Shown piece after piece: positions 6,646 through 45,708 of a DNA stretch of 64,000 nt. The DNA lies in assembly GCA_030390025.1 (NCBI GenBank), contig CM059433.1, positions 113,584,001 through 113,648,000 of the forward strand. The letters run 5' to 3'. Numbering within the stretch: position 1 is the first letter of the stretch; each line of letters opens with the position of its first letter. This DNA comes from Squalus acanthias (lineage: Eukaryota). The position numbers and the translations under genes are program-made. Below the pieces are notes generated by a model that did not search any database, had not been told where the DNA came from, and worked only from the letters and a program-made list of their open reading frames with translations.

Positions 6646-8699
6646 GGAAGGAGGAACATTAGGGTGTTAAAGCTTTGTTGAAATAAATCCTAATCAAAGT
6701 ACATTTAATTACAACTGATTCATCTCAATAAGTATGTTGTTTACTGAGCAAAAATTACAACAAAACCATTTAGGTGGAATTGTCTATCATGCTTTCTTCC
6801 TAAGATGTTGAACTTGGAATTCTGCCCCAAGATTGAAAGTAATAGATGACCCGAGTGTGATACAAGGCAGAACAGTCAAAAACTGTAGTTCTCAAATCCC
6901 TAAATCAGGTTGCATGCATTTTTGTGTAGTAATAAATGTTTATTTATTTTTTTAAAACATATTCTTCGCCAGCTACCTTTTTGGTCCAGAAAGTCCACTG
7001 TTAATTCAACTGCCTTTAAAGTGGATAGTCGTTTATTTCTCATCACATGGCCTTTTTGGGGGGGAAAACATGAACCAGGGATAACGTTGTAAGCTCTGCT
7101 TTGTGATGTGTTATTTTTGACCCTGTGTATATGTTAAATGAATTGCTGGGTGATATCTGATGTACTCTGACTTTGGGACTTGAATTTATAATATACAATC
7201 AACATATGTTGTAAAGAGTAAGAGAAGTAAAAAGTCAGATTCAAAAAAACAGCTTTTATTTTTTTTTTAAATAGAGTAAACCGTTGAAATTAATCTCTCC
7301 TCCAGTTTGACTCAATGGGGGCTTTATTTGCAATACAAGTTATTTGGAACTTGAATGGCAGATGTCAAGCTGCTTTGTCACACTGATGTAAACATCTCCA
7401 ATCATCCTACATAGAGTATGCCTACCAACTAGGCAAACAAAAAAACCTTCTATAAAACAATCTGATTTATGACCGGGAGACTCTTTTTGAAGTGACCATT
7501 TTAATGTCAGCACATTAATTAATTTAATGCCCCGATTTATTGAAGTAACATATCAACCTTAGTTTCTCTTGGCTCGTCTATTTGATGGTACGGTTGTTAT
7601 TTTGATAATTATATATGTTAGTGCATTTACTACCACGTCAGTAACGTTTATATAGGAAATGGGCAAGTGCAGTAAAACCACCCTGCCACACGCCCACCCG
7701 CCCACAGTACAATACTTGTTGTATTTATCTCCTTTTATAGAATGGGTAAACGTCGCCATAGAAACGGCAGCACCAGGATGTAGAAAATTTAAAAGGGCAA
7801 CAATCCTTTATACAATTAATATTTAAAAATCGCCTCTTTGCGGTGTGGTTCTGCAATAGAACCATACTGAATTACGTTGAAGCTGTTTATACAACCGAAC
7901 GGATAGTTTATATATGCATAGTAATGTTTTTTTTCCCCCCAAGAAGATAATCAAAGGTTCGGGTTTAGTCTGGGAGACACAGAAAGAATCATAAATAAGG
8001 TATTGCTTTGTAACCTTGGCAACCACAAAAATAAAATGGGACCCGTGCAATTGAGAGTCACGTTATTCTCAGATGACAGCACCAAAGTAATATTGCAGTA
8101 AAAACTCGCACATTCTGCAGTTAAAACGCTATTTCTTTGTCCTCCCCTCACTTAATGTTAAACAAAATAATGTAACGCCCTTTTACTTCACAATTCACGA
8201 CTATAGGACCAATTCTGTGTTCGAGTTCAAGAACTTGGAAAAACTGCATCTGCTATCGATGCAACTGTTAAAGAACATCTTTGACCGTGTAGATTTAATT
8301 TGGAGGGGGAAAGAGTGTGAGTTGGAGGAATAAAACCAGCGGGGACTTGGGGGACGCTCTGCAACAGTCAGAGATGCGGCACCCCTGTATTGGGTGAGGT
8401 CCCGGGGAATTCCTCAGTGAGTTGTCTTAATAAAATATCCTCTTATTTTTCCAACAAAGTGATCACGCCGCACAAAAGGGGGTTTCAACACGTTTGGAAT
8501 TACGTCTCGAGTATTCCTGCGAATTCGGCATATATCTCCTCCCAGCGAGTCCAATAGGTTGGCGGATTTATTTATTTTAATTAATTTGATAAAGCTACTG
8601 TATCCGATATTAAACGAGGCCGCGTGTAAACGCGCAAGAGAAGACTGCTTAACGTGCAACGCCCACCGAACCACAATCTCTCTCTCTCTCTCTCTCTCT

Positions 8700-9074
8700 C
8701 CCCCAGCTGATCTTTAGTGACCAGGTCAGTTTTCCTTTTGCCATTTGTTCTGAAATAGTGTTCGCTCGGCCGAGCAGCACAAGCAAGGCTGTGCGTCCAA
8801 CAAGCCGGCCTGGGCTGTCGGATCGCCTCCCCCTGGCCTCAAATCGCTTGAAGCCGCCAGCAGTGCTGAGTGAGTGAGTGAGGGGGGGAAGGGGGAGAAC
8901 CCCTATTTTTGGTCTCGGCAGACAGTGCTGTGCTGGGGGCAGCTGGGGAACTCGGTGTGTACACGGGAAAGTAAGAGGGGGAGAAAAAGCTAACCTCCTG
9001 AACACACCTGACTACGCGTGCTAGCTTCCGGCTGATCCAATGGCTGTGGAAAAGCAGACGCCGCCTGTTACCAG
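8700..9074 (+). other. Putative distal first exon of a long LIN28B transcript (5' end uncertain)
   Basis: Lies in a CpG-rich segment and ends in a consensus donor CAG|GTGAGT at 9074/9075, 1.3 kb upstream of the 10406 acceptor. Contains an out-of-frame ATG at 9040. Confidence 0.5.
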
Positions 9075-9473
9075 GTGAGTTCCTGTATACAACATTCTTT
9101 AAATAGCCCTGTGGAAACCCGAGCCCTCAGACTGATCACACCGCGCCGTCTGCCTCACCAATGACTCTTGCAAAATGGGCAACAGAACTGAACCGTGGGT
9201 TCAAAATGATCATCCTGCAGCTATCTTATAATAAGCAGCTCTGCTCTTCTGAACAGTGGACGCTTTTTAAACGTTGAGACCTTTATATGTGATCGTTAGA
9301 GGCAAATCTATCTCTTTTTTTTGTTCATGTATTCGACTTCTGACCAGGAAAAATTACATCTGAAAAATATATTTTTTTTTAAACCTACAAAATGTTCGAT
9401 TCTCCTCATGTACTAGCAGCATAATCTAATGAATAAAATTCAGCAAATCGACCATTTTGAGCAAAATGTGTTT

Positions 9474-9717
9474 ACGCATTTCAGTGGAAGCTAGATAAGT
9501 ACATGCGGGAGAAAGGAATTGAAGGTTGTCGAAAGGGTGAGCTGAGGTAAGGCGGGGGGAGGAGGCTCGTGTGGAGCATAAACACCGGCACAGACCTGTT
9601 GGGCCGAATGGCCTGTTTCTGTGCTGTAAATGCTCTGTAAACGTGTGGAGCATAAACACCGGCACAGACCTGTTGGGCCGAATGGCCTGTTTCTGTGCTG
9701 TAAATGCTCTGTAAACG
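9474..9717 (+). mobile_element. CR1 LINE 3' fragment with a tandemly duplicated 74-bp tail
   Basis: Similar to the CR1 3' end at 20905-21067. The unit 9568-9641 is repeated exactly from 9642. Confidence 0.85.
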
Positions 9718-10405
9718 CCACTTTAACGCACACAAAGCCGTGCACATGCAAGTTTAAGTTAAAATGTGTTTGGTATGTATGAGACATACTGGAGTCGTTC
9801 AATGGGACCAGCAGCATAATCATTGCTTTTAATGCAAAAACTGAGCTCTAGGACGTTATTGCACAGAACAATCGGCTCAAGTCGAGGAGTGAGTACTGGA
9901 ACGCAGGGAGTTCTTGTGTTACACTCTGCTGGTAAAATATAATCCATTATTAATAGCCTGAAAGAATATACACCTCGGTTTTGCAGAAGGGAAACAAATC
10001 CGTATGTCTTTCTCTCAAAAATGTGGCTGGAATGTTTGCTACACGATAGTGTAACGCTGGAAGCGGCCGATCGATAAACACAAACTCCAGCATTAGAACT
10101 CACCACAGAGTGAACATTGTAAAGCTCCTGGCTGTCCTAGAGATTGGAACCGTGCTTGTGAATGCTCCTGTGAGAAGCTTGAATTGCACTCAGCCGATTT
10201 ATATTTGGCACAGTTTAGTCCTTTTGTCTGTCTAGTGAGAAAGGTAATCGGAACATTCAGAAATCTTTTGGGATGCAATGAGACGACAGGATTCCGTCTG
10301 GGGAAGCAATGGCCACATTTTTCGTCTAACTATAAAAGGTTGTGAACTGTGTGCAAACATTTACTGTCCTTTCATGCCAAACTGAGCAGACGTGTTAATT
10401 TCCAG

Positions 10406-10457
10406 GTCTCAGAGAAGAGGATGAGCTCATTCAAGATGGTTTCCTGTCCAGACTCAG
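10406..10457 (+). CDS. LIN28B: Putative distal alternative LIN28B exon (52 nt; ATG at 10421; MSSFKMVSCPDS|G, phase 1)
   Basis: tttccag| acceptor and CAG|gttggt donor. Reads VSEKR-MSSFKMVSCPDS-G, in frame with exon 2. Resembles the recalled human upstream LIN28B exon VLQKR-MRSFNQVSSAP-G. Confidence 0.7.
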
Positions 10458-13400
10458 GTTGGTCGTTCTCTTTAAAAAAAAATGTTTGTAATATATATAT
10501 ATAGACACATGCTTGTGTGCCACTGAAGCACGATGTGATCTGCATTTCTTAATTCTATAGTTTTATAAAGCAGATGATCTAACTGTACGGCGGTCAATTT
10601 TCTGACCGTCCAATGCATTCATTCATGGCATGTCCTAAAAGTACATGATGTCCTGAAATGCAGTTAGATAATACCTGATTTAATAAATGGCGCTGAGGCA
10701 TACACAAAGGATTGGCCCACCAAAAATATATTGTAATTTGGCTATAATAATTCGCTGTTTAGTCGGTGCTTCTTCAGGCTAAGCTTCATTTTCAGAAGTA
10801 GTAAACGTCTTGATGATTGTACCTAAAAGCTTAAAGTACCTTTTCAGGATATAACGACATTGTGGGCAACGTGGAATCAGTTGTTGCTGACTGCATAAAA
10901 CTGAAATTTATTTTCTCAAACGACATCACTTGCAAAATAATGTCGTTTGGGACACTTTTGGGAGGGTAGGGGAGGTTTTTTCGAGGGGGAGAATTCAGCC
11001 CTGAAGCACAGTATAAAACTTCAGCGAATATCACATACTTGTTAGTGCGAGAAATGTAACATTAACCAACCAATTTTGTGTGCAGTCGGTGAATTCCCGT
11101 GACTTCTTCGCGGACTGGTTGTGATTTATTTTAAAGCTATATGTTAGGTACAGTACTGTAACAAAAGGGGGGCTGTCACTGAGAAGCAGTTTCGAATGAA
11201 GTGAAGATGTTGGATCAGCCGCTCTGTGCGAGATACTCGACTAAACTCACCCGCTATAGGCATGACATGCTTAATAATTGTTTTAAAGAAACATTTCGGC
11301 AAGAAAGACTGGAAGAAAAAGGGAAGCCCATTTAGGAGACAGCTTGTGGGAACAGATAGGTGGCACAAGTTGGTGTCATCAGACTGCGCCGTGTCCGCAA
11401 CCAAACAATACGGTTACGCTCTAGTTGCTGGTTCCATCCTTGTATCCGGTAACTCAAAATTCAGTGTTGGAAAACAACACTTTGCATAGTTCGCCTAATT
11501 GATAACTCACAGAAACCTGCCAATTACACAGGCCGCTTCTGTCCCGCGGTAGCCAGAGTTGGAGAAAGGTTCTTCTCAAACTCACTTTATAATGGATCTA
11601 GTGGCGAGTTATTAGGACCAAAGTTACCCTGTCACTTTTGTTTCCGTTTGTAAACTGGAACCGGGGAGAAGCTGGTGTCCTTTTCAGTGTTCTGATGGGA
11701 TTGGTGGTGATTATTTTAAGGTTCAGGTAAACTGACTGGCCTCTTTATCCAACTCCGTGTGTGTGTGTAAGAAATCGAGCGGAAAGTGGCAAACAAGCAG
11801 AAATGTTAAAACTGGAACGGTGTGGTGGAAGTGACACCCGATATAGAGCTCGCCTTGGTTTCTGACACGCATTACCCGACCGTTCACAACGGAAGGCTAA
11901 GGCACTTACTGTGTGGAGTGGAGTTGCTGGATAGGTTGTGTGTGGAGCCAGCAGCGCTCGGTTCGGACATCCCCGACACACACAAGCGGTCTAAATCCAT
12001 GGGTCGGTCTGTCAGTGAGGCCAACGCCGTCCAAACTCTTATTTACATGGGAGTGGGTGGCATTTTATAATCGGAATTACACTTTTAGTTACTACGGTCC
12101 ACGCCCTCCCCCCGACTTGCCGCATGAAGACAAATGGGCTTTCCCCCACACCCGTGCCCTCTCTAGTCTCGTTATCTGTCTTGTAGTTACAACCGCACTG
12201 TTAATATTCTCAGCACGCCAGCATTTCGGCTTACTAAGTCATGAGGAACACACAGGCAACGTGTGTGTGTGTATAGAGTATCTAAAGGTGGTCCTTACTT
12301 GTCGGTTGGTATGCGGTTGTCTTGCTCCGGGCTGGTCGTGGTCACTCGGGAGTCCATTGTGTTGACTCGATTCCAGCAGCATTCACTCGCTCGTTCGTTC
12401 TCTCTCACTGACTCAGTCACTCCCTGCTCCAGCTCCAACACCAACCCCAAGCATCGCAAAACACTGACATCACCACCTGCCAGAGAGGGATTTCCTCGAG
12501 GCGCGTCATCCGACCAACACAGCCCTCTTAAAGAAGCAGGACCCGTCCCACCTCACTTTAAACGGCGACGGGGACACGCTTTGAATAAGGATGGTTGGTT
12601 CATGCAAGTTTTGATTTTTGAGGGTGAGGGCAAGCAGCGTTCTCAGATAATCCCACCCTCTTGTTAGTGACCTTTTTGTTTTGGACTAAACCGAATCTCA
12701 ACAAATCAACAACGAAGTGGTTCTCTGTCTCTCCTTGCAACTCCTGCAAAGTATTTTAAGATTACTTTAAGAAGAAAGGTGGGAAAGTACCTCCCCGTTT
12801 GAAGATTGTTTTTGGTTTCATAACGGTGGAAGTGGTGGGGGTCAGATGTCGTTAGAAGCAACAGACCATTCCTTCTCGAAGTTCTGTGGTGTTAGTAAAT
12901 TTGTTCATTTTTTTTAAATGAGGAAAATAAAACAGTTACCCCTAAATCAAGCCAAGAAGGTCACCAGTTTAAGCTCCATTCCTGAGTGACATTTGACTTT
13001 TTCTCCTCTTAAGATAAATTGCCAACCAGGCTCCATGATTTAGGGAACCCCCAGAAATGAATATCCCAGATGGGCATGAAAGCAATGTACAAATCCACAG
13101 ATTGCCAGACCTGAACCCTAACCATGACTAATGTTCACACTCAGGTTTGCCCCAGATGGTGAGGTGTTGATCTTGCTTTTGCTATTGAACATTACACCAA
13201 ATAATTCAGAGATGCCTACATGATCAAAGGGAGGGAAATTGTCTGGCATTCAACCTTTAGTTGCATTTCAGCCTGTAGTGTATAGGCTGACTACAGAACA
13301 ACATTCATTTTCACAGTCACCCAGATCAATGCGCAACTTCCAGGAGAATGCAAATAAAAAGGATAATTTGAAGAGCGAAGTCTTCAGTTGATGATGGAGC

Positions 13401-15060: not shown

Positions 15061-16620
15061 TTTTTTTATTCGTTCATGGGATGTGGGCATCGCTAGCAAG
15101 GCCAGCATTTATTGCCCATCCCTAATTGCCCTTGAGAAGATGGTGGTGAGCTGCCTTCTTGAACCGCTGCAGTCCGTGTGGTGAAGGTACTCCCACAGTG
15201 CTGTTAGGGAGGGGGTTCCAGGATTTTGGCTCCGCGACAATGAAGAAATGGCAATATATTTCCAAGTCAGGCTGGTGTGTGACTTGGAGGGGAACTTGGA
15301 GGTGCTGGTGTTCCCATGCACCTGCTGCCCTTGTCCTTCTAGGTGGAAGAGGTCGTGGGTTTGGGAGGTGCTGTCGAAGAAGCCTTGGCAAGTTGCTGTA
15401 GTGCATCTTGTAGATGGTACACACTGCAGCCACGGTACGCCGGTGGTGGAGGGACTGAATGTTTAAGGTGGTGGTTGGGGTGTCAATCAAGCGTGCTGCT
15501 TTGTCCTCAATGGTGTCGAGCTTCTTGAGTATTGTTGGAGCTGCACTCATCCAGGCAAGTGGAGAGTATTTCATCAAATAAATACTGTGGCAACAAGAGC
15601 AGGTCAGGGACTGGGTATTCTGTGGCAAGTGTCTCACCTCCTGACTTCCCAAAGCCTTTCCACCATCTACAAGGCACCGGTCAGGAGTGTGATGGAATAC
15701 TCGCCACTTGCCTGGATGAGTGCAGCTCCAACAACACTCAAGAAGCTCGACCCCATCCAGGACAAAGCAGCCCACTTGATTGGCACCCCACCTACCACCA
15801 TAAACATTTACTCCTTCCACCATCGGCGTACCGAGGCTGCAGTGTGTACCATCTACAAGATGCACTGTAGCAACTCGCCAAGGCTTCTTCGACAGCACCT
15901 CCCAAACCCACGAACTCTACCACCTAGAAGGACAAGGGCAGAAGGCGCATGGGAACACCACCACTTGTAAGTTCCCCTCCAAGTCACACACTATCCTGAC
16001 TTGGAAATATATCACCATTCCTTCATTGTTGCTGGGTCAAAACCCTGGAACTCCCTCCCTAACAGCACTGTGGGAGTACCTTTACCACATGGACTGCAGC
16101 AGTTCAAGAAGGTGGCTCACCACCATCTTCTCAAGGGCAATTAGGGATGGGCAATAAATGCTGGTCTTGCCAGCGACTCCCACATCCCAGGAAAGAATTT
16201 AAAAAATCACACTCCTTACTTGTGCCTTGTAGATGGTGGAAAGACTTTGGGGAGTCAGGAGGTGAGTCACTTGCTGCAGAATACCCAGCCTCTGACCTGC
16301 TCTTGTAGTCACAGTATTTATATGACTGGTCCAGTTAAGTTTCTGGTCAATGGTGACCCCCCCCAGGATGTTGATGGTGGGGGATTCAGTGATAGCAATG
16401 CCGTTGAATGTCAAGGGGAGATGTTTAGACTCTCTCTCTTTTGTTGGAGATAGTCATTGCCAGGCGATTGTGTGGCATGAATGTAACTTGCCACTTATCA
16501 GCCCAAGCCTGAATGTTGTCCAGGTCTTGCTGCAGGCGGGCATGGACTGCTTCATTCTCTGAGGAGTTGCGAATAGAACTGAACACTGTGCAGTCATCAG
16601 CGAACATCCCCACTTCTGAC
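15061..16620 (-). mobile_element. CR1/L2-group LINE, 5'-truncated, split by an inverted copy of the same family
   Basis: RT motif MFADDCTVF (16425-16628 ORF), then TIDQKLNWTSHI and IYKAQVRS, continuing YSPLAWMSAAPT to AAHHHLLKGN*. Poly-A-like 3' end at 15061. Confidence 0.85.
15577..16205 (+). mobile_element. Second copy of the same LINE family, inserted antisense into the first
   Basis: ORF 15587-15970 matches the peptide of the minus-strand copy. A-rich 3' end at about 16200; ATCA occurs at both junctions. Confidence 0.85.
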
Positions 16621-18399: not shown

Positions 18400-21067
18400 T
18401 TTGAGGGGGAATGGTTGAAGTTAAATATTGCAGTGTAGAATGGGTATTGAAGGAAGAAGGGGAGGTGGGGTAGCTGTGCCAATTAGCGGTAACATAAAGG
18501 CAGTAGAAAAAAGGGACATAACTAACATTAAGATAGAAACAGAATCCATATGGATTGAGATAAAGGATAAGAAGTGACTGATCACGCTAATAGGGGTATT
18601 CTACCGACCACCTAATAGTTGGAGGGAAGTGGAGGAAGAAATTAGTAAAAGACATAGAATAATACTCATGGGAGATTTCAACTACCCCCAAATAAACTGG
18701 CAAGACGGGGTAGTGAAAGGGGAAAAGGGAATGGAGTTTTCACAGTGTGTACAGGACTCCTTTCTTGCCCAGTACATAAGAAGCCCAACAAGAGAGGATC
18801 TAGTAATGGGAAATGAACCAAAGCAAATAAGAGAAGTAAATGTAGGGGAACATCTAGGCAATAGCCATCACAACATCATAAAGTTTAAAATAATGATTGA
18901 GAAAGACATAAGTAAAACAAAGACCAAAGTAATAGATTGGAAAAAAGGTAATTTTGAGGGAATGAGAGTGGAACTAGGGAAGATCAACTGGAAAAAAAAT
19001 ACTGACATAAAAAAGATAGAACAGTGGAAAATATTTAAAAAGGTAATCGAGAGAATTCAGGAGAAATACGTTCCACTGAAAGAACATGAACAGACTAGCC
19101 AATAATTAAACACCATGGACGAAAGAAGAGATAAAGACAAAATTGAAACTAAAGAAGGCGGCATACACTAAGTACATAGACCACAAAGAAGGGGATAACA
19201 AAAGGGAATATGAAGAGCTTAGGAAAGAAGTCAAAAAATTAGGAAAGCAAAGAGGAACTACGACATTAAGTTATCAAGAAATATAAAAAGAAATAGTAAA
19301 GTATTCTACAGACACATAAATAACAAAAGGAAAATCAGGATAAGGATAGGGCCAATAAGGGATGCACAAGATAAACTCACAGGTAATGACAGTGAAATGG
19401 CAGAAATATTGAATAATTACTTTGCCGCAGTGTTTACCAGGGAGAAAAACAAGGTGGACATGACATTAGAAGAGGAGTTTTAAAAAAGGATATCAAGGCA
19501 TTTAAGATAGAAAGGGTGAGATAATAAACTAATCAAACTTAGAGAGGATAAAACCACTGGGTTAGAGAAGCTAGGGAAGAGATAGTAGAGGCACTATTAT
19601 ATATTTATAAAAATACATGAGAAAATGGTATAGTGCCAGAGGACTGGAGGACAGCTAATGTTATTCCTATATTTAAAAAGGGAGATAGAACATGTCCAGG
19701 GAACTATAGACCAGTTAGCTTAACGTCGGTGATAGAAAAGATAATGGAATCTTTACTCAAAGATGTAATAGAAAGGCATCTAGAAACCAAAAATACAATA
19801 AAGAATAGTCAACATGGATTTCATGCTTGACCAACCTTACTGAGTTCTTTGAAGAAGTAACAGAAAGAGTAGACAATGGTAATGTACTGGATGTAATATA
19901 CTTGGATTTTCAAAAGGCCTTCAATAAAGTACCACATAGTAGACTCATGGCTAAAGTCAGATTATGTGGAGTCAGGGGACAAGTAGCAGACTGGATAGCT
20001 AGCTGGGTACAAAACAGAGAGTAGGGGTTAAAGGTAATTACTCAGACTGGCGGAAGGTGGGAAATGGTGTTCCACAGGGATCGATGCTGGGACCACTGCT
20101 GTTCACTATTTACATAAATGGTTTGGACTCCGGAATTGGAAGTACAAATTCTCAATTTGTGGATGACACCAAATTGGGGGGTCTAGTTAATACTGAGGAA
20201 GACTGCAACAAATTACAAGAAGACGTTAATATACTTCCAGAATGGTTGTAAATGGCAAATTCATTTTAATATATATAAGTGTGAGATGCTGTATATTTGT
20301 AGGAAGAAAAAGGAGGCCACATAATCCTTGGAAAATAAGAGTCTAAATGGAGTAGAGGAGCAAAGGAATCTATGCGTACACATTCACAAATCATTAAAAG
20401 TAACAACGCAGGTTAATAAGGCCAAAATACAAACTAAGCACTGGGGTTCATTTCTGGAGGAATAGAATTGAAAAGCAGAGAAGTTATGTTAAATTTTTAG
20501 AACCTTGGTTAGATCACACTGCAACTGTGTTACAGTTCTGGTCACTGTATTACAAAACGGATATATAAGCACTGGAGAAGGTACAAAAAAGATTTACAAA
20601 GATGATACCAGAACTGAGGGGTTATAACTATCAGGAGAGACTGAATAGGCTGGGGCTCTTTTCTCTAGAAAAGAGAAGGCAGAGGGGTGACCTAATGGAG
20701 GACTTTAAGATTATGAAGGGGTTTGATAGGGTAGACGTGGAAAAGATGTTTCCACTTGTGGGGGAGTCCAAAACTAGGGGTCATAAATATAAGATAGTCA
20801 CTAATAAATCCAATAAAGAATTCAGGAGAAAATTCTTTACCCAGAGAGTGGTTAGAATGTGGAACTGGCTACCACAAGGAGTAGTTGAGGCGAATAACAT
20901 AGATGCATTTAAGAGGAAGCTGGACAAGTACATGAGGGAGAAAGGATTAGAGGGATATGCAGATGAGGTTAGATGAAGTAGGGTGGGCGGAGGCTCGTGT
21001 GCAGCATAAACACCGGCATAGACCAGTTGGGTCAAATGACCTGTTTCTGTGCTGTGAATTCTATGTA
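18400..21067 (+). mobile_element. CR1 LINE, about 2.7 kb, 5'-truncated, with frameshifted ORF2 (APE end plus RT)
   Basis: GDFN (endonuclease), WRTANVIPIFKKG..NYRPVSLTS, DVIYLDFQKAF, GVPQGSMLGPLLF, FVDDTKLGG and RRKFFTQRVVRMWN. Multiple stops and frameshifts; CR1-type 3' UTR. Confidence 0.95.
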
Positions 21068-22505: not shown

Positions 22506-22967
22506 TACCCTTGTCACTGATTCCATTCCCCACTCCAGCCACAGTCTCAGGCTGAACCAGACTGTTCACAATCTCACCGTCCCATTTAACCCTGAGCTGA
22601 GTTTCCGACCCTATAGTCTCTCCATCACAAACACTGCCTATTTCCACCTCGGTAGTGTCGCCTGTTTTTGCCCCAGCCTCAATCCATCTGCAGCTGAAAC
22701 TCTCATCCATGCCTTTGTTACCTCCAGATTAAACTCTTCCGATGCTCTCTTCATCAGACTCCCATCCTCTACCCTCCATAAACATCAGCTCATCCATATT
22801 CTACCCTGCACCAGGTTCCGTTCACCCATCACCCCTTTCCCCACTGACTTACATTGACTCCAGATCCCCCAATCCCTCCAATTTAAAATTCTCATCCTTA
22901 TCTTTAAATCCCTTCAAGGCTTTGCCCCTCCTTATCTCTGTAACCTTCTCCAACTCTATAATTTCCT
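22506..22967 (+). mobile_element. L2 LINE 3' fragment (resumes at about 23806-24025 after a CR1 insertion)
   Basis: Peptide AAETLIHAFVTSRL..RSPITP is typical of the L2 ORF2 C-terminus. The 3' continuation matches the L2 piece at 41005-41255. Confidence 0.75.
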
Positions 22968-23805
22968 CAACACTGGAAAGTACTGCAGTACAAAGGGATC
23001 TGGGGGTCTTGGTGCAAGAAAATCAAAAAGTTAGTATGCAGGTGCAGCAGGTGATCAAGAAAGCCAATGGAATGTTGGCTTTTATTGCTAGGGGGATAGA
23101 ATATAAAAACAGGGAGGTATTGCTGCAGTTGTATAGGGTATTGGTGAGACCGCACCTGGAGTACTGCATACAGTTTTGGTGTCCATACTTAAGAAAAGAC
23201 ATACTTGCTCTCGAGGCAGTACAAAGAAGGTTCACTCGGTTAATTCCGGGGATGAGGGGGTGGACATACGAGGAGAGGTTGAGTAGATTGGGACTCTACT
23301 CATTGGAGTTCAGAAGAATGAGAGGCGATCTTATTGAAACATATAAGATTGTGAAGGGGCTTGATCGGGTGGACGCGGTGAGGATGTTCCCAATGATGGG
23401 TGAAACTAGAACTAGGGGACATAATCTTAGAATAAGGGGCTGCTCTTTCAAAACTGAGATGAGGAGAAACTTTTTCACTCAGAGGGTAGTGGGTCTGTGG
23501 AATTTGCTACCCCAGGAAGCTGTGGAAGCTACTTCATTAAATAAATTTAAAACAGAAATAGACCGTTTCCTAGAAGTAAAGGGAATCAGGGGTTACGGGG
23601 AGCGGGCTGGAAATTGGACATGAGTTTGAGTTCGGATCGGTCAAGGCCCTGTGGGTGGCGGAGCGGGCCGAGTGGCCTGGTCCTGCTCCTGCTTCTTGTG
23701 TTCTTTAGAGTTGAGGTTGGATCAGATCAGCCATGATCTCATTGAATGGCGGAGCAGGCTCGAGGGGCCGATTGGTCTACTCCTGCTCCTATTTCTTATG
23801 TTCTT
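22968..23805 (+). mobile_element. Relatively young CR1 3' fragment with an open ORF2 C-terminus and a doubled tail
   Basis: QRDLGVLV..KANGMLAFI..LVRPHLEYC..RRNFFTQRVVGLWN is uninterrupted to the stop at 23623. Two successive tails end in tcctgctcct..ttctt.tgttctt. Confidence 0.92.
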
Positions 23806-34335: not shown

Positions 34336-36721
34336 GCCTTTTAACTCTCATGCTGGGTGTTTTTTATAATGTCTTGGCGTATTAAAATCTGTGTTAAAAG
34401 CGAATGGAAGTTGAACTGCATTACTGATATGCAAGAAGAAAAAGATGCCTATTGCAGGTGATAATGAGATGTTCCAACATTTCACAGAGTACAAATGTAG
34501 ACAAGGCACGAATTCTGTATGCATGTGAAAAAAAGTGTGGATCAAACAATTAACTGACGAGAAAAAAAATCGCTAACGGGGGCTATAGAATGAGACAGTA
34601 AAAGTCGGCAGTAAATGTATTTATTTTAATCAAAATATAAAGTAATTTCCCCTCTAAGCGTGGAATAGTGTATTATTTCTAATATTTTGATTTGAAAACA
34701 GAATTTTGTATAAGTCATAAACTGAAAGTGATAATTGTGGGAAAATTGAAATACTGAGGGGGCTTACGATAGATAACAAGGAAGAGGCGGCAGTGTTAAT
34801 TACAGGCATTAGGAAATGCGGCAGGTCGAGTTGCCAGCTCACAAAATTACGGAAGGATTACAGGGACACGATTACAAAGTTAATTCTACAGTTTAGAGCC
34901 GTGATAAACTCGGATCACTTTCCAGACCGAACTAATCGCCAATCCGTGTTTTAAAGGCGTCTAGTTGCTTGCAGCTCCGGCTGTGAATGGAACTGTTGGG
35001 AGTTTCCTAGTGCCCGCCCACAGTCAATGCTTTTCACTATAGGTTGACTTGCTATATCCGGCGCGGACGGACATCTACTCTTCATACAGTTAGCCGCCAA
35101 CTCAAATAATTGTACTTTTACCTCCAGTGTAGCGGTTGGATGTTAAATTGTCTTAATTAAAATTCGCGAAATTTACCTGCTCGAACCGAAGATAATAAAA
35201 TGCACTTGGAACCTATAACATGTGGCAGTTCGTTATAACAAGATGTGAAATCCGTTGTTCTTATAATTGCAAATAGTAATTAAAATTGTTACCCCGTGGT
35301 GGTAATTGGGTGTTGTAGCCGTATTTTATCAAATAAGTGTTAGCGACATGAAATCAATATTTAAAAACCGACGGGCAATTATTACATTTGAAAACTTTCA
35401 TGGACAGACTCTTATTTTGGGAGCGTCATTCATAGAGAGCCAGAAAGTGAGCACGCCGATTAAGCCGGGTGTGTTGATTTAATAAATGTAATAAAGTAGG
35501 GGCGGGGCCCCATCCTTTGCGGAGTTGAGACTAGGCGAAAGCAGCAAAACCGCGTGTTGACGAGTAACGCCGCACTGCCCGTTTTCCAAGAGGCACTTCC
35601 AGGTTTTTTTTTGTTTACCCCCCTCCCTCTCAATCAACCAGCCTATCCAGATAACTTGAGTTGTTCGCCTCTGGACAGATGTTGCACTGGGCGTAATTTG
35701 TAAAACTCACGAGAACGTCAGTTTGGAGGGGATATTGCGGTTTCTTAAAACGATACTTATCTATTCTCGGTGCAAAGGAAGTTCCTGACACATGGGTTTA
35801 TGTTCAATTATTTCCCAAGGGAACCTGAGCACAGGCCGAAAGGTCGGGCTCCTCCCTCTCTTGGGCATTCCTTTGAATAGATATTGTGTGATATTGTCAT
35901 CGAAAGTCTAATAAGAGAAGGAAACCAGCAAGTTAACATAATCATGTGACCACCAACTCCCCAAGTCCATTCCATATGTCGGTCTCTTTCTGTCCCATTC
36001 TTCCATTTAGGCGCTGCTCGGTTTGTGTCGTGTACCTTTTGATTTGCTTTTTTTTCCAGAATGGCGTGTTATTCAGTTAACGTGATGACTTCAGGTGCCC
36101 CGCCTTAGCCTGCAGGGGAAGGACAAGCCCCCGGCATTGCGAACCTAACGTCTTAGAACTCCTGTAAACTCAATTAAGATGCGTGAGATACTAATTAAAA
36201 GCCACCCAACCGCCTTATCGAGCGCCTAATCTTACAATGTTAGTAATTTACCCTAACCTAATTTAAATGTCCGTGCTCTCTGGACACGTTCAGTTAACTA
36301 AACCCAATTCGCATACACGTTTCTCTCTCCACGGATGTTGCCTGGCCTGCTGAGTTTTTCCAGCGTTTTCTGTTGTTATTTCGCATACACTGGTTCTGTT
36401 CTTTGACCAAGTTCCCCAGCGTCTTCTCCAGTGCAGGCTACAATCAAATGGCAATTGTTCAGCACAACTGTACGTGTTGATGTAGTGTGAGCCACGAACA
36501 TTTCAGATCCAATTCGGTTGAAACAAATTTCAGATCGTGTAAGCAGCAAAATATAAAGAGCGCACCAAATGATCAAGTTGAGGTTGATTGCGATTGGTTA
36601 TGGAAAATCCGACGCCTAATGTATGTTGTGAGTAAATAGGTAGCAGGATGACGACGAGAGCAGGAAATGTACAAAAGTCATCCAGGGTAGACCTGCTATT
36701 GGATTAATAAAATGCAGCGAC

Positions 36722-36825
36722 GGGAATCTCCTCGTGGCGTCTCCCGCTCCGCCGCCGTAACTTCGTCGGATAGCCCAAACGGGATTGCCGCCGTAGTTAT
36801 GGCGGCGAAGCCCCAGGAAATTCCC
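36722..36825. repeat. GC-rich palindromic element of about 105 bp
   Basis: Outer gggaatctcct / aggaaattccc and inner 36750-36769 / 36788-36807 (17/20) inverted pairs. Confidence 0.75.
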
Positions 36826-37425
36826 CAAGTTACTGCTCAGGAGATCGTTTAAAAAAAAAACATAATTAATCTTTTATCTGGAAAATGAGTTGTTTGAGGG
36901 ACAAATGCTGAGATCCAGAATCGAATTTTCTATTTTCAATCCAAATCTAATTGATTTCAACAAATTCCAACTTTTTCCTCACTGACCATTTTCTTTTTGA
37001 TATCCACGCGCTTCCTCCCTCCCTTCCCCCCAGTTTGGACATTGACTTGCGGCTGGCCTGTGCCTTTGGGCTTCAGCTATACTGCAGCTACCCTCTCCGG
37101 CCCATTTCCGAAGTGCGATGCGCGGCCGGAAGACCGGGGTTATACTGCTGGTTACTAATCTGCCCAGATGGCAGGTACAAAGGAGCAAGAATGCTTCCAC
37201 AGGGGCCCGAGATCCTCTCCCTGGGACATTAATTGCTCAGAAAGCGCTGCCGGAGCTTGGATCTTCTGGTCATATTCTAAAGATTCCACGCACCTTTTTT
37301 TTCCCTCGAAGTTTCCACCAGTTCCTGCACCAAAATGTCAGTATTACAGCTTCTGTTACACGACGAGGTTATTTGTTGGGAAATACATCGGAGTTTTTGG
37401 TGTAAGGGACCATGTAACGGAATAC

Positions 37426-37447
37426 ATGGAAACTATTAAGTATGAAG
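37426..37447 (+). CDS. Candidate alternative LIN28B 5' exon (METIKYE|G, phase 1)
   Basis: ATG GAA ACT ATT AAG TAT GAA G|gtaagt: a consensus donor, in phase with exon 2, in a CpG-rich domain. No homology support recalled. Confidence 0.3.
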
Positions 37448-39095
37448 GTAAGTATAGGTGTGAAAACCATATTGAAGGCCATGTATTTATATTGGGTATT
37501 TTGAGTACAGTTGTGTAAGTGCGCTGCACATATACCGTGTGTTGACTGGTGTCTGAGACGCTGTAAATGAACACGGGTGAACAGTGACCACAGTACACAC
37601 GACTTCCCGTCGTGCTGAAACGAGGGACACTGCCGCTGCTCTGACACTAGCCGCCTTTGCTCAGCCCTCTGCTCACTGCTGCCGAGCCCCTCCCAGTTAG
37701 CCGTGACAGGCCGTTCACTGGGCCATTTTATTCATAATGGGAGCACGTCTGAAACGGCGCTCACCTCACCAGGGGCACGGAGGCTGGGTTGTAATAGAGT
37801 TAGGGGTGTGTTGTGGACGGTATTTTTGTGTAAGTCGGTTGAACAAGAAATCGTAAGATGTTTCTTGGCTAAATTCTGTGCAACTAGGTGTGACATAACG
37901 GACACGTTTTCGAGAGGTTACGTCCCTGATCTTAAAGATCTTTACAGATGTTTTGTGGCCCAGGGAACCGAGATCAAAATCAGAAACGGCGAGATTTAAA
38001 GGGACCGAAGCGCCAACGGTATAGTAGGATTAAACCCCAAGGCATTAAGTCAAACAGATGTGTTAATTTATATCAAATATATAAATAATTAACCACCGCC
38101 CGACATTTAAGAATGGCTGATTCCTGATCTTAACGGGATCCACGCTGTATGTCAAATAAAGTTTTATTTGTTTTTTCCCCCCTCTGTTGGTCTTTTTCAA
38201 TAAAACAAAATACACTTTGTGAAGTGATTATTCCCCCCAAACATCGAATCATCCAACAATCATCGGACGGTCGAACAGCCTGTAACAAACGCCCGGCCCC
38301 AATGAAACTCAATCCCAATCGACGACGTTTTATTTAAATTCGACCGAATAATTTCCGTTTCGATAGAACGAAATATGTTGCGTTGAACCACATTTTGGAA
38401 CTTTACTGTCTGGCCGGGTCCTCGTGACACTTGATTTGCCACTTAAGACGAAAAAAATGGAATTGCGGAGCGGGATAGTCACATGTCCGATCGCTCTAGA
38501 CTGGAACTGTGTTTGAAAACTTGCAAATATGTGCTCGCCTCGCTCCCAGCACTGCAAACACAAACTGGAAAGTCTGCTGGACTTGAGTCGAACTGCTGTA
38601 AACACCTACATAATCAGGCAAGGTTGATCAGGTCGATTTGTCACCCCCCCCCCCCCCCCCCCAACCACCATTTAAAAATAAACGCTGCCATCACTTTTCA
38701 CTTGAGAAAAGGGCTCACATCTTGTTAAATCCGTTCCAATGACGATTCAAAATTTGTTTTACAGAGAAACGCTTCGATTTGTTATCAGATTACAGATTCA
38801 ATATTTTGGGGTGGTTCCTGGAACACTTCCCGGTCGATATGTCTGAAGCACACACTTAACGTTTAATCCGTCACCAGCCATCATCTATGGGGAAGTCCAT
38901 TGGTAGCTTTTATTTAAGATTAGTCATTTCGAATGAAGAGGTGCTGCTGATCTGGCAGATGTAAATTTTACTTAGAAAAGGTTTCTTTAAAAAAAGGGAC
39001 ACCCACACCCAAAGCCTTATCATCGGTCTCCTGGTAAAATCCTAAGTATGTGGCTAATACCACCTTAAATAGTGAAACTTCTGAACATCACTGTA

Positions 39096-39130
<35 letters not shown>

Positions 39131-40639
39131 GTGGTATTTTCTATAGAGTCCGCAAATAAAGATGGCGACAAGCCTGTAACTGGCGGACGGACGGACCATG
39201 GTGCCAGTTCTCCGAATGACTGTTAATTTGTTGATTTTAAAATGGGGGAAAAAATAACAAATTTACTGGCTATTGCGGCGAAAATGAATATTATCTGCCC
39301 ACGCACAGCAGTCGGGAGCTGTGCACGAATATGGTGCTGCCAGGTCTGGTGTCGGATTGCAATCAATGACCAGTGTCCACTGTATATACTGCGGAATCTC
39401 TCCATTTCCACTGGCAGGCCCACGGTTCAATCAGGGACGGCGAGTATCGGTGGGCCCCACCAAACACATTTATGAATGAGTTCCACGCATCACGCCAGGA
39501 CCTGGGCGTGTTCACACTTTGAAAATGAGTGTCAACTGATATATCTATTACTTTCAACATTCACGAATATCGCCGTGTTGGGAGGGGGGGGGGGGGTTAA
39601 TGTGGTTTGCTCAAGATTCCTGATCAATCTAGTTCCCTTTACAAGTATCGATGCGGCTCACTTTAATGGAGCCGGCGCTGTAGCTAGCGAGTAAGGAGCA
39701 GTGTGGTGCGCAGGTCCGAGTGAATCCCCCCCCACCCACCCCCAACAATCAACCAGCTTGAAAGAATTTTCCGGGGTAAGAGTCACCGGCGCTAACAAAG
39801 GCCTTTGCTGTTTTAAAGAGCACCTCGTCCCTTTGTCCTGTCCCCTCCCAGGCAAAGGCAGCCCTATGCACTGGGGAGTGGAAGGTAAGCACCATTCGCA
39901 CAGGAGATCGCACAGGAAGCTGCTGCAAGGGCTGATACCCTTTATCTCACGTGCAGCAGGCGTGCACAGCGGAGTGAACAGGGGGGAAGGGAGTGGGGGT
40001 GGGGGGCGGTGCGAGAATCAATAGTCCGCCAAGCCTCCTGATGACTTTCCCGGGGGTGGTGGGAATAAAACAAAACGTTGACACAATACTCTGCTTCTCA
40101 CCGTGTGATGCATTCAGCTGGTCTTCAGAGGAAACCCGTTTTAAAGGACTCGTTCCGGCTTAATTAGCAACACTAATGAAGTATCCGAATCACTTGTTAA
40201 CTCACATCCCCTGGCGAGTCAATGCCGCACATTGAGAATTGTTGAAAATTCGATTTTAGTGGATTAGTTTTATCTGACAAATCTCTCACACGTGTATTTT
40301 AATATAAAAAAAATCTTGTTATGTAAATACCAAACTGTATATTTTATAAATATAAATAACAGGTAAATATTTCCATCTATAATTTTAAATATAATTCTTT
40401 TGAACATTCATTTCAACCGAAAATGTAGGAATCCCAACGAATTGTGCATAAGCAAGGCTATAAAATGGGTGCTTTAGCACTATGGTAATGTTGTGGATTA
40501 AATCTACATATTCTTCCCAATTTCTGAAAATATCCGTCATGGACGCTGACCTATCATAAAATGATGGAAGTGCTATGAAAGCTAATCGTTATTAAACGTA
40601 TCAGGTGTTGAGTTTTCTTTTATACACATTATATTTGGG

Positions 40640-44746: not shown

Positions 44747-44756
44747 ATGGCCGAAG
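44747..44756 (+). CDS. LIN28B: LIN28B canonical exon 1, coding part (M-A-E-G, phase 1)
   Basis: acaacATGGCCGAAG|gttact has a good Kozak context (A at -3, G at +4). It matches the vertebrate LIN28B N-terminus MAEG and joins exon 2 in frame (G+GA = Gly). Confidence 0.93.
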
Positions 44757-45223
44757 GTTACTTTTTTTCTCTCTCTCTTTCTCTCTTGTTTAAAAAAAAA
44801 TCCTTTTTTTTTTGCATACTTTTAAGAGATCGCAGAGGGGGCTTTTCCAAACCCATTGTTGTAGATCTCCCAAAATGTATGTACCCGCCCCCCATTTATT
44901 CACAACTTCAAAGGCTTTCTGAGGGCTATTGTGTGGACTGTTTGTGTCCGATTAAGCACAGTTTTCTCTCTCTCGCTCTCTCTCTCTCTCTCAGTTTGTG
45001 TGTGGAAGGCAACACTGTACACCTGCCCCTTAAGTTTGATCGGAGAACGCACGCTGGACGCTACAGTAGTTTTCTTCAGTATAATACGAAGCTTGTTCTA
45101 GTGGAGCAATACAAAACAAAAAAGCTCTCGCGATCGACGCTGTTGAATGTTGATCACGATTAGCGAAAAGAGCGGAGGGAGAAAAAAAAAGCCGGGCTTG
45201 TGTGACAGTGGTTTCTGCGGGAG

Positions 45224-45254
45224 ATGGGCTCCGTTTTAAACCAGCCGTATTCCA
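45224..45254 (+). CDS. LIN28A-like alternative first exon (or relic) in LIN28B intron 1: MGSVLNQPYS, phase 1
   Basis: gagATGGGCTCCGTTTTAAACCAGCCGTATTCCA|gttacg is 31 nt followed by GT, the same length and phase as the LIN28A first coding exon (MGSVSNQQFA|G). The donor is weak. Confidence 0.55.
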
Positions 45255-45526: not shown

Positions 45527-45708
45527 GAGGGACGGGTAAAGGTGGTGGAGACGAAAAAGGAAAATTGACAGAGAAAGAAGACTCTCAAATCCAGCAGGGA
45601 GCAGGCCACTGTAAATGGTTCAACGTTAGAATGGGATTCGGGTTTATCTCCATGACCTCTCGGGAAGGCACCCCCTTGGAGACGCCAGTCGATGTTTTCG
45701 TACACCAA
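45527..45708 (+). CDS. LIN28B: LIN28B exon 2, N-terminal half of the cold-shock domain
   Basis: Long polypyrimidine tract plus gtccag| acceptor, and CAA|gtaagt donor. Translates (G)GTGKGGGDEKGKLTEKEDSQIQQGAGHCKWFNVRMGFGFISMTSREGTPLETPVDVFVHQ. The GHCKWFNVRMGFGFISM and VDVFVHQ motifs are LIN28B-type (LIN28A has GICKW..GFLSM). Confidence 0.98.

Follow-up and report, generated by a model that had tools for sequence, protein, structure and literature searches.

Analysis of a 64,000-nucleotide stretch of Squalus acanthias DNA (hereafter, the window) revealed a distal exon of LIN28B at positions 10406–10457 of the plus strand, which we consider to be real and very probably orthologous to the exon used by the human isoform LIN28B-TST. 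Sequence comparison places the origin of this exon very probably in the ancestor of jawed vertebrates. An earlier note on this DNA had proposed that the exon predates the split between sharks and bony vertebrates, a proposal now supported by the N-terminus shared among the LIN28B models of holocephalans, elasmobranchs and amniotes. AluJb-LIN28B is a standard example of an oncogene isoform made by a transposon. Should the exon go back to the first jawed vertebrates, approximately 16 of the 22 extra residues of the human isoform come from conserved sequence and Alu is mainly a promoter, so that a well-known case of onco-exaptation would need a small but genuine correction. A normal long isoform would also be predicted, open to study in mouse, chicken or shark.

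Read directly from the window sequence, the exon is 52 nt long and is bounded by AG and GT. The acceptor reads ...TTAATTTCCAG|G at 10405/10406, with the context ...GTTAATTTCCAG|GTCTCAGAGAAGAGG followed by ATG, while the donor reads ...GACTCAG|GTTGGT at 10457/10458. The exon consists of a purine-rich 15-nt lead (10406–10420) followed by an ATG at 10421, with A at position −3, that opens 12 codons and one additional base, G, leaving phase 1 (10421–10457); its translation is VSEKR-MSSFKMVSCPDS plus G, and a further in-frame ATG in strong context is located at 10436. The lead aligns with ILQKM, VPQKT and human VLQK; it is probably 5′ UTR in the shark and would be coding only where an upstream exon brings an in-frame start. 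When the exon is joined to 45527 across an intron of 35,069 nt, the reading frame stays open without a stop into the LIN28B cold-shock exon. The anatomy described in the earlier note, namely a 52-nt AG..GT-bounded exon with 15 nt before the ATG, ending in phase 1 and lying 35 kb upstream of exon 2, was thus confirmed together with the in-frame join. Taken alone, this anatomy is at chance level, as 56 candidates of 40–70 nt with the pattern YAG..ATG..phase-1..GTnnG were identified between 9075 and 44700, four of them also with a 15-nt lead. Given these look-alikes, exon anatomy was dropped as stand-alone evidence.

The identity of the gene is provided by exon 2 (45527–45708, plus strand), where the cold-shock domain starts. 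Its closest protein relatives among the best 120 of 251 matches are cartilaginous-fish LIN28B proteins, and it matches Pfam CSD with E=1.2e-5 and 25.5 bits, a score just under the 27-bit cut-off because exon 2 holds half of the domain. The remainder of the domain and the two CCHC zinc knuckles belong to later exons; the next LIN28B exon gave no match inside the window (scores of 31–35) and probably lies past 64000. Two proximal first exons precede exon 2 on the plus strand: the canonical coding exon 1 (MAE-G, 44747–44756, donor GT at 44757) and a third alternative first coding exon (MGSVLNQPYS plus A, 45224–45254, donor GTTACG). Among the 108 named proteins in the best 120 of 251 matches, the MAE-type start is present in 28 and the MGSVLNQPYS-type start in 12 (8 LIN28B and 4 LIN28A), and the MAE-type N-terminus is found in fish LIN28A models as well. 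Since both types occur in LIN28A and LIN28B models, the two proximal first exons are probably older than the duplication that separated LIN28A from LIN28B. A scan of the 64,000-nt window for Rfam families returned no matches.

Conservation of the distal exon was assessed by comparing N-termini of the 108 named proteins among the best 120 of 251 matches, with the 12 unnamed proteins left out and exon-type rows picked by eye. By this choice, an exon-type N-terminus is carried by 41 of the 108 proteins, comprising 6 cartilaginous fish, in which the exon peptide corresponds to the annotated N-termini, 7 reptiles and birds, 21 mammals, 2 amphibians and 5 ray-finned fish. Named LIN28B models of this kind are usually supported by RNA-seq junctions. 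All 12 residues of the shark exon peptide are matched at the N-terminus of LIN28B isoform X1 of Heterodontus francisci, two catsharks and one skate are identical at 11 of 12, and the bamboo shark and chimaera at 9 of 12; compared for coding constraint at the protein level, cartilaginous fish show an identity of 9–12 of 12. Outside this group the similarity is graded across turtle, bird, gecko, marsupial and placental models, most of which show 4–6 identities over the first nine residues (5–6 in reptiles and birds, 4–5 in most mammals), while ray-finned fish, amphibians, rat and echidna share just 2–4. An identical 11-mer end is present in 10 of the 108 named proteins of the best 120 of 251 matches.

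The chimaera peptide is intermediate in this series, with an amniote-like MRS start and a shark-like C-terminal half. Furthermore, the five-codon lead is visible in three models, as ILQKM in the chimaera and VPQKT in the turtle and wagtail, compared with VSEKR in Squalus acanthias, and its presence in chimaera, turtle and bird supports an ancient origin. With the lead included, 8 of 14 residues are identical between the shark exon and turtle or bird. The residue before the methionine is R, T or M in every row that displays it; all three can be encoded with an A at Kozak position −3, which would fit a conserved A. Upstream of the exon, the acceptor flank (10346–10405, plus strand) agrees at 12 of 20 residues, including 8 of the last 9, with the N-terminus that the chimaera model gains by reading through the acceptor; its score of 43–44 equals the best chance match window-wide, so that the likeness counts by its position only. 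A search with the shark protein's N-terminus yielded six candidates, of which only three were cartilaginous-fish matches. The long LIN28B models in RefSeq and UniRef (for example Heterodontus X1, Columba X1 and Callorhinus X1) resemble the shark exon in that the same N-terminal peptide joins exon 2, but they bear automatic names and carry no statement on cross-class homology, promoter, expression or function. In the wagtail and turtle models the open frame comes in from upstream and continues across the lead, and the N-terminus may thus have been lengthened outside primates also, unless this is a prediction artefact.

As a blind test, a profile was built from reptile, bird and mammal rows only. 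The conserved stretch spans about 14 codons, and, as the profile length was fixed after inspection of the data, lengths of 7, 9 and 11 are all reported. With this amniote-only profile, 10406 ranked first among 2,851 plus-strand AG-preceded sites upstream of exon 2, scoring 25.5–28.1 versus 13.6–15.2 at the next AG-preceded site, and its score was reached in 0–3 of 1,000 simulations under the same AG and strand constraint, so that the peptide similarity exceeds chance under this constraint. Unconstrained, the profile again gave 10406 the top rank, out of about 128,000 positions in six frames, with a score that was reached by 13–26 of 200 simulated windows and is hence not significant. Neither the unconstrained profile without the lead (143–191 of 200 simulations) nor an ATG-only scan without the lead (81–216 of 1,000 simulations) was significant, and a mammal-only profile placed 10406 seventh in its top lists. 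As the scans without the lead fail while the AG-constrained scan passes, the signal resides in the lead and peptide together at a splice acceptor.

These scans bear directly on the idea of separate origins for the upstream exons of sharks and amniotes, the likeness of the two short peptides being due to chance or to convergence. The brevity of the sequence, the 56 look-alike candidates, the non-significant unconstrained scans and the weak matches of intermediate lineages would all agree with such an origin. We nonetheless regard it as highly improbable, since it must account for the 8 of 14 residues shared with turtle or bird, lead included, the lead length and phase common to both exons, the far lower score of the next AG-preceded site, and the chimaera sequence that is intermediate between amniotes and sharks.

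Common ancestry, which we favor, very probably extends to the human isoform. Supplemental Table S1 of PMC13405042 gives four peptides for the human junction chr6:104937116|104950461 in hg38 coordinates, namely MSHRRQVLQK, QVSSAPGGASK, VSSAPGGASK and SSAPGGASK, and supplementary figure text of PMC10760525 places AluJb within the 104,936,000–104,939,000 view. The first peptide comprises six residues followed by VLQK, which aligns with the lead, and the other three match the last residues of the placental-mammal exon peptide together with the start of exon 2. Jang et al., as quoted by PMC10760525, describe 22 'unannotated' extra residues in AluJb-LIN28B, and by length arithmetic 6 + 5 + 11 = 22 matches this reported extension. 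In addition, the preprint PMC12247766 gives a length of 258 aa for the AluJb-started LIN28B isoform in primed hESC, which is also the length of the exon-type proteins of seal, pig and squirrel. The residues between VLQK and QVSSAP in the human isoform would be bridged by this arithmetic and by the sequences of other mammals. Within the limits of these tabulated and quoted sources, the claim that the human upstream isoform has the same 15-nt lead and phase is borne out by the junction peptides and the 22-residue arithmetic. A primer pair and its 181-bp product, both given in PMC10363060, do not fit a simple model in which the ATG of the primer is the start, for which 105 bp was computed, and they do not enter the argument. 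Among 42 matches to the N-terminus of a seal protein, one further unnamed protein being left out of the counts, an exon-type N-terminus was not seen in any named human or simian protein; a lemur match in the same set has another N-terminus.

The human AluJb-LIN28B (LIN28B-TST) isoform, known from Guo 2018 and Jang 2019 as relayed in PMC10760525, PMC10296230, PMC10363060 and the supplement of PMC13405042, and the shark exon share the five-codon lead and the ...VSS.. sequence running into exon 2, and in both the distal start skips the canonical first exon, as we read the shark locus. They differ in that the shark exon is one codon longer, and in that the best candidate first exon of the shark has no in-frame ATG, leading to an expected N-terminus of 12 residues versus 22 in human. 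Transposon-derived promoters in general provide an existing gene with a new start by way of a repeat (onco-exaptation, as outlined in PMC10363060 and PMC12963367), as AluJb does for LIN28B; unlike the general case, the landing exon of AluJb-LIN28B is very probably a conserved alternative exon rather than the canonical exon 2 or a cryptic exon. The suggestion that Alu co-opted an ancient isoform rather than creating one holds for the most part, with a qualification: about 11 of the 22 residues would be anciently coding and five would derive from an ancient leader, but six residues are new and the lead has been made coding. By sequence, the contribution of Alu is very probably a promoter, six residues and five recruited leader codons.

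How would the exon be used in the shark? A CpG-rich region at 8251–9250 (plus strand; 22–27 CpG per 500 nt versus a median of 7), with CCAAT motifs at 8389, 8551 and 9037, is a candidate distal promoter and first exon, and a near-consensus donor, CAG|GTGAGT, follows 9074, 1.3 kb upstream of the exon. The distal promoter is probably this CpG-rich region at 8.3–9.2 kb. Only one of seven candidate upstream donors provides an in-frame methionine, and as no such methionine precedes the 9074 donor, the lead should be untranslated in the shark. Our proposed mechanism is that the distal promoter makes a non-coding first exon that would be spliced to 10406, that translation would begin at the exon's own ATG at 10421, and that the exon would splice past the two proximal first exons directly to exon 2. 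The predicted product is a full LIN28B in which a serine- and lysine-rich N-terminus of 11–12 residues replaces MAE. Its role would most likely be regulatory: LIN28B could be expressed by a second route, equipped with a separate 5′ UTR and start context, in those tissues or stages in which the proximal promoter is silent, and the alternative peptide may also tune protein stability. A germline or embryonic role, as raised in the earlier note, is a possibility. Alu is not known from sharks; in primates, an upstream AluJb would have gained promoter activity and would splice to the same acceptor with an in-frame ATG, so that six new residues are added and the lead supplies five more. In the human literature, the review PMC10296230 states that the extension increases protein stability, PMC10363060 describes the Alu transcript in placenta and its absence from eight adult tissues, and PMC6390544 describes a maternally methylated region upstream of LIN28B in placenta.

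A different start for the shark transcript is suggested by a TATAAAAG motif at 10331–10338 (plus strand), a consensus match 75 nt before the exon that could be its own promoter. The ancient exon might then also, or only, be a first exon in sharks, transcribed from a TATA promoter at 10331, with the 9074 donor irrelevant and the AG acceptor in use only where a lineage has an upstream exon. The perfect match to TATAAAAG at this distance fits such an arrangement, as does the chimaera-like flank before the AG, which could reflect promoter or UTR constraint. It is nevertheless unlikely in our judgment: turtle, wagtail and, on the published junction peptides, human all enter at the five-codon lead, which points to conservation of the acceptor; AT-rich DNA will not rarely carry a TATA-like 8-mer within 100 nt (approximately 4% by rough estimate); and 1.3 kb upstream there is a CpG-rich region whose donor is near consensus.

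Splicing from the 9074 donor, as we prefer, would carry one further consequence. An ATG at 9040 is out of frame with LIN28B and, in the event of 9074 being spliced to 10406, would open a candidate uORF of 17 codons beginning in 9040–9074 (plus strand), for which both junction and start site are predicted. Over this predicted splice, the uORF would end at the TGA at 10422–10424, overlapping the main ATG (ATGA). The same ATG was ruled out as an in-frame start, as out-of-frame stops follow whether it is joined to exon 2 directly or via the exon. The uORF raises the question of whether translational control, rather than the peptide, is the feature under selection, in that a uORF stop overlapping the start would dampen or gate LIN28B and the in-frame Alu start would lift the brake. 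The frame of ATG 9040 would close exactly at the TGA, and the second residues across species (S, T, R, I or M) can all be encoded with an A after the ATG, as this explanation would have it. The same residue set, though, is expected from changes at codon positions 2–3 of one ancestral AGN codon, one frame in three would close in this way by chance, and the argument depends on a candidate junction and start site and on DNA from the shark window only; we thus find it improbable. An extended version would make the human 'tumour-specific' isoform a re-wired distal-promoter isoform present since the first jawed vertebrates and throttled by the uORF, with the Alu ATG bypassing the brake and most of its neo-epitopes being normal self peptides; to this combination we likewise give little credence.

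The origin of the extension, however the shark exon is controlled, matters for the peptides proposed as tumor antigens. Four HLA-A*11:01 peptides are given for LIN28B-neoTST in the supplementary material of PMC13405042; three of the four span the join of the old exon with exon 2, and Alu-side residues are present in only one. The three junction peptides are identical in non-primate mammals, being unchanged in 10, 11 and 12 of the 108 named non-human proteins among the best 120 of 251 matches. They would be self wherever people make a non-Alu long isoform. Within the junction peptides, rat and wood mouse differ from human by a G for V, and the immunogenicity of some of these peptides, when tested in mice, may therefore partly reflect a species difference.

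What is already known is that automatic protein models of many species include the exon. That the Alu transcript originates in normal tissue has likewise been published, in PMC10363060. Our literature search, which covers subscription papers poorly and is no proof of absence, turned up no report of conservation of the exon as far as cartilaginous fish; a full-text search for the mammalian exon peptide gave no matches, and a search by title and abstract start found nothing relevant on conservation or non-human isoforms of the exon.

Other features of the window were also recorded. The long intron holds LINE-like fragments at 15122–15970, 18578–19105, 20569–20976 and 22733–23623; 18578–19102 matches Pfam Exo_endo_phos_2, while the other three gave no Pfam match and are presumed LINE-like by resemblance only. 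An exact 74-nt tandem duplication occupies 9568–9715 and presumably resembles a SINE/LINE tail, with donor-like motifs at 9536 and 9546 just ahead of it. Finally, more CpG-rich stretches, with 20–29 CpG per 500 nt, are located at 11500–12750 and 34750–40250 and may be enhancers or extra promoters.
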